Shown: one piece after another, positions 48,070-48,989 of the stretch
How positions within the stretch are numbered: the stretch's first letter is position 1
Layout: each line of letters starts with the position of its first letter
Assembly: GCF_038025025.1 (NCBI RefSeq)
Contig: NW_027117345.1
Coordinates: 372,001-436,000, forward strand
Source of the DNA: Phyllosticta citribraziliensis
Taxonomy: Eukaryota
Length of the DNA stretch: 64,000 nucleotides
Reading direction: 5' to 3'
Notes under the pieces: model-generated
What the model was told of the DNA's origin: nothing
What the model saw: only the letters and a program-made list of their open reading frames with translations
The model's database searches: none
Translations under genes and position numbers: made by a program

Positions 48070-48207
48070 CTACATTACCACACACGGCAATGGAATCGGA
48101 AGGCAGCAGCAGGCGCAATCGTCGCCGCACAAGCATGGCAGCTGCTGAGGTGCGGGTCTGCTGATTTTGATAGAAGACGAAGATGAAGACTTCGTTGAGC
48201 CAGGCAT
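48070..48207 (-). CDS. 45-aa Cys-rich micropeptide ending in CaaX motif CVVM (predicted prenylated)
   Basis: MPGSTKSSSSSSIKISRPAPQQLPCLCGDDCACCCLPIPLPCVVM*. A-rich start context, predicted 5'UTR intron 48240-48338 (GTACGT...GCTCAC...CAG) and a purine-rich 3'UTR-like tail. Confidence 0.75.
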   Translation of the reverse strand: MPGSTKSSSSSSIKISRPAPQQLPCLCGDDCACCCLPIPLPCVVM

Positions 48208-48989
48208 TGGTTTTGTTGACTTGATGGTTTGTATGCTGTCTGCGTCGCATCGTGGTGAGCCAGGTAAGAAAAAAGGCGCAAAAAAGAGAAAAAGAAGGAC
48301 GGCGTAGGGGAGAGAATAGTGCGGGCTGAGAGACGTACTCTTCTTCTTGAATCAATGTCGTTGCGTTGCCGGTGGTGCTGGGGAAGGGTGTTGTTCTTGG
48401 TAGGTCGCACGTCAGGAAGGCAACTGTCAGAAATGGAACTTGATTTGGCCAAGGCCGGAGGTTCTGGACTACAAAACAGCCCTCTGGCTGTCTAGATATG
48501 TGGCCATCATGAGTGGCGCAGGGAATGTCTTGGGTTGATCGTCCTGTGGTTGGCTTGGGTGGATGGCTTTGAAGTAGTCAGGCAGGCGAGCGGGATTAAG
48601 CAAGGCTGAGGATTGGCAGTGCAATTGGAGCGCGCTGACTATTGACCAAGTGGAGTGCATCTCTGACCATTTATCGTCGACGGAGAGATGTGTGGCTGGC
48701 GGGAGCTGTGCCGTGACGCGCGCCACGGAAGGCGCAGCACTTGCAATCAGCCGTCCATGTTGTGGTGTAGACCTAGCAGTGAGCACACGCAAAGAATCAT
48801 TGGCTGATGGGCGGGAGCGAAAGTAAGAGCAGCGGCGTGGTGGTACCTAATGTGAGTGGGCGCAATGAAACTAAACTCTTCATTGGGTATTCGCTACCGA
48901 TTTCGAGGACAGAGCCGGCCATGCTCCCTCTACACGATGGGAATTTGTAGAGATGGAAGACCCAGCTACTAGACGTTGGATACAGAGAT

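Follow-up and report, generated by a model that had tools for sequence, protein, structure and literature searches.

We analysed a 64,000-nucleotide (nt) stretch of Phyllosticta citribraziliensis (contig NW_027117345.1 of assembly GCF_038025025.1, positions 372,001 to 436,000), hereafter the window, and focused on a micro-gene on its minus strand that encodes a Cys-rich peptide of 45 amino acids (aa) ending in a CaaX box. The host genus belongs to the Dothideomycetes, order Botryosphaeriales. Translation of 48207..48070 (minus strand) gave MPGSTKSSSSSSIKISRPAPQQLPCLCGDDCACCCLPIPLPCVVM*, exactly the peptide that an original prediction, made from the letters of the window, had read in this open reading frame (ORF). 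The micro-gene is flanked upstream by a gene for a GAT-domain protein and downstream by a gene for a PAP2-superfamily phosphatase (Table 1). Across the six frames of the window, 477 ORFs of at least 30 aa were found; the micro-ORF is the only one with a strict CaaX end and one of three with at least seven Cys within 20 aa. Its N-terminus is polar and, by inspection, free of any hydrophobic stretch, in the manner of a short CaaX precursor without a signal peptide. A Pfam search with the window peptide returned no family at E values up to 10.

Table 1. Coordinates of the micro-gene, its transcript features and the two flanking genes (positions within the window)
Feature	Position	Strand	Basis or remark
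GAT-domain gene, 3' part (upstream synteny anchor)	48990..49972	-	RNA contigs, domain match
5' leader, first exon, minimum extent	48339..48597	-	X2 record 7 extends to 48597
In-frame TGA 5' of the ATG	48352..48354	-	Leader and codon analysis
5' untranslated region intron, 99 nt, GTACGT...CAG	48240..48338	-	Skipped in X1 record 2 and X2 record 7
5' leader, second exon, 32 nt	48208..48239	-	Spliced contigs
Coding sequence, 45-aa Cys-rich CaaX peptide	48070..48207	-	ATG 48207-48205, TAG 48072-48070; translation and homologues
Cys cluster C25-x-C27-GDD-C31-x-C33-C34-C35	48103..48135	-	Translation, codon positions
CaaX box CVVM	48073..48084	-	Cys42, predicted farnesyl acceptor
3' untranslated region, longest extent seen	47903..48069	-	Contig ends: X1 48037, X2 47903
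PAP2-superfamily phosphatase gene (downstream synteny anchor)	46412..47615	-	Three introns in RNA contigs

The structure of the transcript was examined using contigs from four public sequencing runs aligned to positions 46300-50100; the ends of such contigs need not be the true ends of RNAs. Runs X1 and X2 stem from two studies, both coded organism A, and their index label reads merely 'RNA? (a guess)'. We regard both as RNA-derived because the same runs skip canonical introns in both flanking genes, namely 46933-47011 and 47307-47410 (X1 and X2), 47468-47525 (X2 and X3) and, in the GAT gene, 49003-49052 (X1, X2 and X3). In one X1 contig and one X2 contig, position 48239 is joined directly to 48339, and the removed segment has the ends CT..AC on the plus strand, that is, GT..AG on the minus strand. 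Organism B, a related one, retains the intron in its only contig (X3 record 9), which is about 6% divergent and spans several genes. The start codon is fixed because an in-frame TGA (48354-48352) precedes it with no ATG between, at a distance of 16 codons in the spliced leader and 49 in the unspliced one. Reading frame, canonical intron and start codon were thus all confirmed as the original prediction had drawn them, and the micro-gene is a genuine, transcribed and spliced protein-coding gene. The leader measures at least 291 nt in the X2 contig and carries a 13-codon upstream ORF (uORF), MMATYLDSQRAVL*. This uORF (48473-48511, minus strand) shares the frame of the main ORF, with stops in between, and it belongs to the leader if transcription begins at 48597 or further upstream, as the X2 contig suggests.

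The GAT gene ends further downstream than its ORF suggests. Its apparent stop at 49051-49049 is spliced out by the 50-nt intron 49003-49052, and the true protein ends in ...GGMAWRDV* with a TAG at 48992-48990, four codons further on; a straight ORF call on this gene therefore gives a wrong C-terminus. The micro-ORF starts 783 nt beyond the true stop.

Relatives and purifying constraint

A word-indexed search of about 5.8 billion protein clusters with the single peptide returned no match, and the window peptide itself is missing from that collection. Using phmmer against 1.84 billion representatives, we obtained two matches: a 55-aa hypothetical protein of the Dothideomycete Myriangium duriaei, 64% identical to the window peptide and ending in ...KLPCWCGDDCQCCCIPIPCVVM, and a 655-aa repeat protein (P0002), which was discarded as spurious. 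With a profile built from two sequences, the word-indexed search placed one of 41 candidates at E ≤1, and a scan of metagenome contigs returned 34 loci. Three of these (L030, L033 and L034) lacked the family architecture and were dropped as chance matches; the other 31 encode an intact relative of the window peptide. Their architecture comprises an MP(P)ST-type Ser/Thr-rich N-terminus, the element S-I-(V/A)-K, a core of the form K-L-P-C-W-C-G-D-D-C-(S/Q)-C-C-I-I-P-C and an end in C-x-x-M or C-T-I-Q, and after splicing all 31 have C-x-x-(M/Q) as their last four residues. Two loci, L031 and L032, carry a sequence of the type found in Leotiomycetes. In six others (L009, L013, L014, L017, L028 and L029) the family peptide appears only once a canonical GT..AG intron is removed from the coding sequence, and in each of the six this splicing yields ...CCIIPCTVM*. 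The intron measures about 50-120 nt, lies just before the final ...IPCTVM and was gained in one lineage group; neither the window gene nor the remaining 25 loci have it.

A search with an 18-sequence profile returned 54 proteins at E ≤10 among 8000 scored candidates, 39 of them named and 15 unnamed. Grouped by source name, the named matches comprise 4 from Dothideomycetes (Myriangium, Cercospora beticola, Pseudocercospora musae and Epicoccum nigrum), 1 from Pezizomycetes (Pyronema omphalodes), 18 from Sordariomycetes, 15 from Leotiomycetes and 1 from Amoebozoa (Planoprotostelium fungivorum). No named match fell in the Eurotiomycetes or Lecanoromycetes. The Sordariomycete matches are from Nemania, Hypoxylon, Xylaria, Biscogniauxia, Monosporascus, Pseudomassariella, Microdochium, Apiospora (five entries), Gaeumannomyces tritici, Hirsutella minnesotensis, Colletotrichum acutatum, C. 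melonis, C. fioriniae and Diplogelasinospora grovesii. Class was looked up for 11 of the matched species, and the remainder presumably belong to the classes under which they are given here; among the Sordariomycetes it was checked for 7 of 17 species, covering six orders. The range so defined takes in a Pezizomycete, four Dothideomycete orders (that of the window and three checked), six Sordariomycete orders, the Leotiomycetes and possibly an amoeba.

We inspected 30 of the 54 sequences. The core and a CaaX end were both present in 22, the core was followed by an aberrant end in 7, and one match (P0065) was spurious. The deposited models with aberrant ends (P0017, P0038, P0050, P0057, P0061, P0062 and P0063) overrun the CaaX box or stop within the core, and include three Colletotrichum entries from the acutatum complex, Monosporascus and Pseudocercospora musae. 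They are probably products of mis-modelled introns or stops, and some may instead reflect real loss of the CaaX box.

The relatives fall into two sequence types, A (Dothideomycetes and Pezizomycetes) and B (Leotiomycetes and Sordariomycetes). Sordariomycete members, such as ...LVNRNGPGSAASSTIESIVKP...GKTKCIECDGYECCCIPIPCTVM, hardly differ from their Leotiomycete counterparts, and type B is conserved over its whole length across these two classes, not just in the putative mature part. The Pyronema and amoeba proteins carry the Dothideomycete-type core. Profile-profile comparison of types A and B with hhalign gave a probability of 95.8% (E 6.9e-9, 36 columns). In an alignment of 51 family sequences, C25, C33, C34, P41 and C42 are invariant and K14 nearly so; within the 16 type-A sequences, C25, C27, G28, D29, D30, C31, C33 and C34 are all invariant. 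Read together, these alignments describe an old, Pezizomycotina-wide family of 40-65-aa peptides in which a Ser/Thr-rich N-terminus is followed by a Cys cluster of acidic character, then by a short linker of Ile and Pro, and at the end by a CaaX box.

The amoeba protein (P0045, 85 aa) joins a weak ubiquitin-like domain ending in ...LNGG directly to CWCGDDCQCCILPCSIL, a Cys-rich module of Dothideomycete type with a geranylgeranyl-type CaaX box. Its ubiquitin match in Pfam is sub-threshold (E 1e-4, 22.3 bits against a cut-off of 25.4). The sequence may belong to the amoeba itself, have been transferred from fungi on which the amoeba preyed, or be contaminating sequence in the assembly; should it prove genuine, the module would be delimited as an independent unit beginning at the first Cys.

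To assess selection, we took the final 20 codons of the 29 CCIIPC-type loci; these amount to 18 distinct DNA sequences. In this core, the proportion of synonymous differences (pS) was 0.84, that is, saturated, and the proportion of non-synonymous differences (pN) was 0.057, giving a pN/pS of 0.068. Sixteen of the 20 core residues are invariant; 15 of these can be encoded by more than one codon, and each of the 15 is, with two to six different codons in use. Pairwise identity was 0.63 in the ORF, compared with 0.45 and 0.46 in the two 200-nt flanks and 0.47 in shuffled sequence, and the ORF exceeded both flanks in 117 of 148 pairs. A contig from a more distant relative (X5 record 14) aligns with the window only at 48068-48244, very nearly the ORF plus the short leader exon, and has both flanks replaced. 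The micro-ORF is a protein-coding gene under strong purifying constraint. Of the checks put forward in the original prediction, conservation of frame and CaaX box in relatives was observed in the 31 family loci, and the ratio of non-synonymous to synonymous change (dN/dS<1 in the prediction) lies below one in the 20-codon core of the 18 distinct sequences. For the leader intron, candidates upstream of the ORF were found in 13 of 18 regions against 3.3 in shuffles, but also in 11 of 18 on the opposite strand.

The neighbourhood of the relatives bears on whether the micro-ORF could be a chance ORF in a long 3' untranslated region of the GAT gene, or part of a non-coding transcript from which no peptide is made. 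Such an origin could accommodate the contig X1 record 2, which runs unbroken from the GAT gene through the micro-ORF, as well as the long leader with its uORF. A contig that spans two genes does not, however, prove a single transcript, and in X2 the two genes lie on separate contigs with a gap at 48598-48870. A GAT homologue adjoins the micro-gene in 17 of the 31 family loci; in 9 it is on the same strand and upstream, which is the arrangement of the window, and in 8 it is downstream on the opposite strand, tail to tail. In those 8 loci the micro-ORF is not part of the GAT RNA because the GAT gene is on the other strand. Against a chance ORF stand also the low pN/pS at saturated synonymous sites, the retention of frame and CaaX box in 31 of 31 loci (in six of them across the coding-sequence intron) and the character of the ORF as an island of conservation between flanks at random-level identity. 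These comparative data effectively refute a chance origin, which we consider extremely improbable, and they are decisive in showing that the micro-gene is its own gene, independent of the GAT gene.

On the other side of the micro-gene, L031 and L032, the loci of Leotiomycete type, match the window in having a PAP2 homologue downstream and on the same strand. This neighbour encodes a lipid phosphate phosphatase of the PAP2 superfamily, some yeast members of which dephosphorylate isoprenoid pyrophosphates. That a PAP2 gene adjoins the gene for a predicted farnesylated peptide in two fungal classes could reflect a functional link or no more than conserved gene order.

Membership of a published CaaX family

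Peptides of this kind are already in print. In the available parts of Wilson et al. 2023 (PLoS One, PMC10569646), small CaaX ORFs of Leotiomycetes were screened, and a family typified by BCIN_13g03330 of B. cinerea was named 'putative a-factor pheromone' and reported from 111 species. Its members measure 45-64 aa, end mostly in CTVM and sometimes in CVVM, and are listed in file S10 with sequences such as ...SSTISDIVKG...GKTKCLECDGYECCCIPIPCTVM. The same source presents the family as the only small CaaX ORF conserved across the Leotiomycetes, and its authors themselves doubt a pheromone role.

The window peptide differs from every one of the 111 published sequences and shares the properties that define them. 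At 45 aa and with no Pfam domain it falls within a length range of about 40-65 aa without a recognised domain; its N-terminus is rich in Ser and Thr, and its SSSSSSIKIS aligns with the S-I-(V/A)-K element; and a Cys cluster is followed by an (I/L)P linker and a C-terminal C-aaX. Statistical homology to the Leotiomycete members is given by the hhalign comparison and joined by the PAP2 neighbour that the window gene shares with L031 and L032. Judged by its sequence, the window gene belongs to the BCIN_13g03330-type Cys-rich CaaX family.

In both groups of peptides the Ser/Thr-rich N-terminus contains an S-I-V-K element, the Cys cluster closes with CCC, an (I/L)PIP linker comes next and the end is CTVM or CVVM; a PAP2 neighbour is also common to both. 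The difference lies in the core: C-L-C-GDD-C-A-CCC, with LPIPLP as a longer linker, in the window peptide stands against C-(I/L)-E-C-DGYE-CCC-IPIP in the Leotiomycete peptides, whose GY motif and N-terminal MC are absent from the window peptide. The window peptide is thus a sequence variant that carries one more Cys (CCC after C-x) and has the longer linker, and its host is a Dothideomycete, a class outside the scope of Wilson et al. 2023 as far as the available parts of that paper extend (PMC10569646).

Our literature search covered the searchable literature apart from the supplements of papers other than PMC10569646. Within it, queries with motif strings gave no match, the tag BCIN_13g03330 occurred only in the 2023 paper, which two papers of 2026 merely cite, and nothing relevant was found on a pheromone gene of Phyllosticta or other Dothideomycetes. 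As far as this literature shows, the family has been described from Leotiomycetes only and as a tentative pheromone only. Apparently new to print, within the same bounds, are its presence in Dothideomycetes, Pezizomycetes and Sordariomycetes, the coding-sequence intron of some lineages, the strength of selection, the conserved GAT/PAP2 neighbourhood and the conflict with the canonical a-factor locus. The proposal in the original prediction that the peptide might represent a separate, unseen class did not survive, given that the family has been in print since 2023 (PMC10569646) and that 39 named deposited proteins match it.

Predicted lipidation and competing functions

In the CaaX pathway, prenylation is followed by removal of the last three residues and by carboxyl methylation. 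A farnesyl group alone binds membranes weakly; palmitoylation of nearby Ras cysteines fixes the protein in the membrane, and N-Ras/H-Ras, yeast Ras2 and Cys clusters of the SNAP-25 type are models of such palmitoylated proteins. Our favoured reading, to which we assign a probability of about one half, is that the window peptide is farnesylated, then palmitoylated on its Cys cluster and so anchored in a membrane. Farnesyltransferase (FTase) would act on Cys42 of CVVM, a motif established experimentally elsewhere; a CaaX protease would then remove -VVM and the new C-terminus would be methylated, as in the standard pathway; and the upstream cysteines may be S-palmitoylated as a second membrane signal. 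The product would be a multiply lipidated micro-protein on the cytosolic face of membranes. We infer each of these steps, as well as a main job other than mate recognition; on this reading the peptide would not be an orthologue of the canonical Sordariomycete a-factor.

Five to six invariant cysteines lie 7-17 residues before the farnesylatable Cys, and in type A the nearest pair lies 4-5 residues before it. We favour a multiply lipidated micro-protein because these cysteines sit just upstream of the farnesylatable Cys, as they do in palmitoylated Ras, of which yeast Ras2 with its CCIIS end is an example. The Cys cluster can also be compared with the palmitoylated cluster of SNAP-25, with palmitoylation in the window peptide only predicted. 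Unlike Ras, the window peptide has no GTPase or other folded domain, and it has five to six upstream cysteines where Ras has one or two. MUB/UBL3 proteins, like the amoeba relative P0045, join a ubiquitin-like domain to a prenylatable C-terminus; the window gene has no ubiquitin-like domain, and no MUB tail is known to have a Cys module of this kind. A feature-based search with the peptide gave leads only, namely an unnamed 56-aa Ascomycota cluster (0.87) and CYSTM-named clusters (0.81 and 0.79). The reading of CVVM as an FTase CaaX box, made in the original prediction, is upheld by the identical CaaX box of human NRas, whose prenylation was strictly FTase-dependent in a yeast assay in the part of that report available; CVVM also ends the Neurospora a-factor (PMC10569646, file S2).

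Several points weigh against this reading. Literature searches returned no lipidation, localisation or translation data for any family member. Between the cysteines, W, G, D and D are invariant, which is more than a simple palmitoylation site usually needs; therefore the pheromone (ligand-receptor surface) and metal-binding alternatives stay alive. The MPGSTK or MPPST start and the C(T/V)VM end resemble Sordariomycete a-factors of the form MPST...CVVM and MPSTK...CTVM, and the literature search and the available parts of PMC10569646 yielded no further a-factor candidate for either Dothideomycetes or Leotiomycetes. All three Colletotrichum matches come from the acutatum complex, in which the canonical a-factor is broken, a pattern that fits replacement as well as coexistence, and the family gene and an intact canonical a-factor are not shown together in any one genome. 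We list here as well an AlphaFold2 model from the 51-sequence alignment, which had a mean predicted local distance difference test score of 48.9 and no secondary structure, and which we regard as neutral.

The alternative in print for the Leotiomycetes is an a-factor-type lipopeptide pheromone precursor, which we consider possible but rather doubtful for this family. In that case, the N-terminal part would be cut near the conserved Lys/Pro that precedes the first Cys, and a farnesylated, methylated core of about 15-20 residues would be exported by a Ste6-type ATP-binding cassette transporter to activate the Ste3-type receptor of the mating partner, a route we hold to be just as doubtful. The likeness to canonical a-factors (N. 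crassa mfa-1 and S. macrospora ppg2) is plain: in the available parts of PMC10569646 these are short, start with MPST, end in C(V/T)VM and have a predicted farnesylated C-terminus, as in the family. The window peptide is likewise a short precursor without signal peptide, has a Ser/Thr-rich N-terminus and shares its CVVM end with the N. crassa and S. macrospora a-factors, and the starts within its family recall the MPST(A/T/K) of the Sordariomycete peptides. The lack of another reported candidate outside the Sordariomycetes and the standing of the family as the sole conserved small CaaX ORF of Leotiomycetes (PMC10569646, in the parts available) also speak for a pheromone. In the amoeba protein the first Cys follows immediately upon a ubiquitin-type GG, as would suit release of the core as a free peptide. 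High conservation is compatible with this function: Sordariales a-factors are nearly identical across families, and conservation alone is no argument against a pheromone because those a-factors are themselves nearly invariant. The canonical peptides, however, measure only 21-24 aa and contain one Cys, with no cluster (PMC10569646), unlike the window peptide. The original prediction was correct in calling the cluster untypical of a-factors, as none of the Sordariales, Gibberella, Verticillium and Huntiella a-factors listed in the available parts of that paper has one.

The locus also differs. The published passages available to us place the canonical a-factor between cyanase and EBP2 genes in N. 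crassa, 22 Colletotrichum and 2 Verticillium species, whereas the window micro-gene lies between the GAT and PAP2 genes. The module occurs, moreover, in an amoeba protein, type B is conserved over its whole length across two classes, and the family is nearly unchanged in Sordariomycetes, where a short a-factor is the known ligand class. Among the six Sordariomycete orders in which family members occur, the Magnaporthales have canonical a-factors. For Sordariales, Hypocreales and Glomerellales, also among these six, such a-factors are given in file S2 of PMC10569646. Both C. acutatum and C. fioriniae carry a family member and, according to the published passages, a separate degraded canonical a-factor at the cyanase-EBP2 locus. 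Canonical a-factors show mating-type-specific expression and act on Ste3-type receptors in the published accounts, whereas the window family is known here from sequence. For the Leotiomycete members, the available parts of PMC10569646 report expression in MAT1-1 isolates of B. cinerea and A. resinae, expression independent of mating type in three Leotiomycetes, and retention of the gene in 11 of 12 Leotiomycetes without functional STE3, 3 of them STE3-deleted. Upstream regions give a similar picture: in 18 non-redundant regions, none of the elements for Ste12, Mcm1, Ace1, Mac1, Zap1, Yap1, STRE (stress response element) or HSE (heat shock element) was enriched over shuffles, and the mating-type HMG (high mobility group) motif CTTTGWW was mildly over-represented, with 10 of the 18 regions containing it and 5.5 expected from shuffles, a signal too faint to rely on.

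A prenylated metallothionein-like peptide is a less probable alternative still, and we think it unlikely. Here the farnesyl group would serve as a tether, and the CxC...CxCC(C) thiolates together with Asp/Glu would bind Cu(I), Zn(II) or Cd(II); a role in buffering, sensing or handing over metal at the membrane is, in our estimate, equally unlikely. Plants offer a comparable case in their prenylated HMA (heavy-metal-associated)-domain proteins, and CYSTM-type Cd-tolerance peptides offer another. The six Cys within 11 residues, the CxC and CC(C) motifs and the invariant acidic residues between them would suit such a peptide, one Apiospora member is labelled 'Metallothionein' by UniRef, a source label only, and the CYSTM-named clusters appear as leads among the feature look-alikes. 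Fungal Cu metallothioneins such as Neurospora crassa Cu-MT share the small size and CxC motifs with the window peptide, which matches no metallothionein profile. Metallothioneins lack a CaaX box and as a rule have no aromatic residues, and the invariant Trp of the family (Tyr in type B) is atypical of them. CYSTM proteins (PF12734) resemble the window peptide in being very small and in combining a disordered N-terminus with a Cys-rich membrane module at the C-terminus; they have a hydrophobic Cys-rich helix and no CaaX box, and feature resemblance is the sole link to them. Neither Pfam metallothionein nor CYSTM families matched the window peptide or eight relatives at E values up to 10. Among solved metal-binding chains there was no meaningful match, the best PDB profile being a steroid-receptor zinc finger at E 0.27, and sites for the metal-responsive factors Ace1/Cup2, Mac1 and Zap1 were not enriched in the 18 upstream regions.

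Weighing these alternatives, we return to the multiply lipidated membrane peptide and extend it to the family as a whole. At roughly even odds, the Cys-rich CaaX module (CWCGDDCxCC-I-I/L-P-C-aaX and variants) would not be a mating pheromone; it would be an ancient, portable membrane module that is multiply lipidated or thiolate-bearing. The original prediction had raised the possibility that the peptide is something other than a mating pheromone. That suggestion fits the different locus, the presence of the family in Sordariomycetes and the published doubts.

Implications and other features of the window

The a-type pheromone gene of filamentous ascomycetes outside the Sordariomycetes has been a long-standing gap, in that Ste3 receptors are present and no ligand gene was known until the candidate of 2023. 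An expressed, spliced member of that Leotiomycete candidate family is now placed in a Dothideomycete, and the family is far wider than reported. If the family does not encode pheromones, the only published a-factor candidate outside the Sordariomycetes has been mis-assigned, and Dothideomycetes, Leotiomycetes and Eurotiomycetes would have a different Ste3 ligand, still to be found. The peptides would then make up a new class of lipidated micro-proteins, conserved and for the most part overlooked by gene callers. The present analysis opens no new class by itself; it sharpens the open pheromone question into a testable form.

Two further observations concern the window at large. A (CTG)9/(CAG)9 repeat at 53829-53855 produces a poly-Cys run in a minus-strand ORF; it is a trivial repeat and not a second Cys-rich gene, and it lies inside a 757-aa plus-strand ORF (53530-55803), where it is read as CAG (Gln). 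Among ten long window ORFs that were looked up, a 507-aa minus-strand ORF at 17552-19075 was the only one with an exact match in the protein collection. Its cluster mates at 90% identity are from four Phyllosticta species and include proteins named acetylxylan esterase or cutinase-domain protein, and gene models at this position evidently vary between assemblies, because the lengths within the cluster differ widely (230-720 aa).

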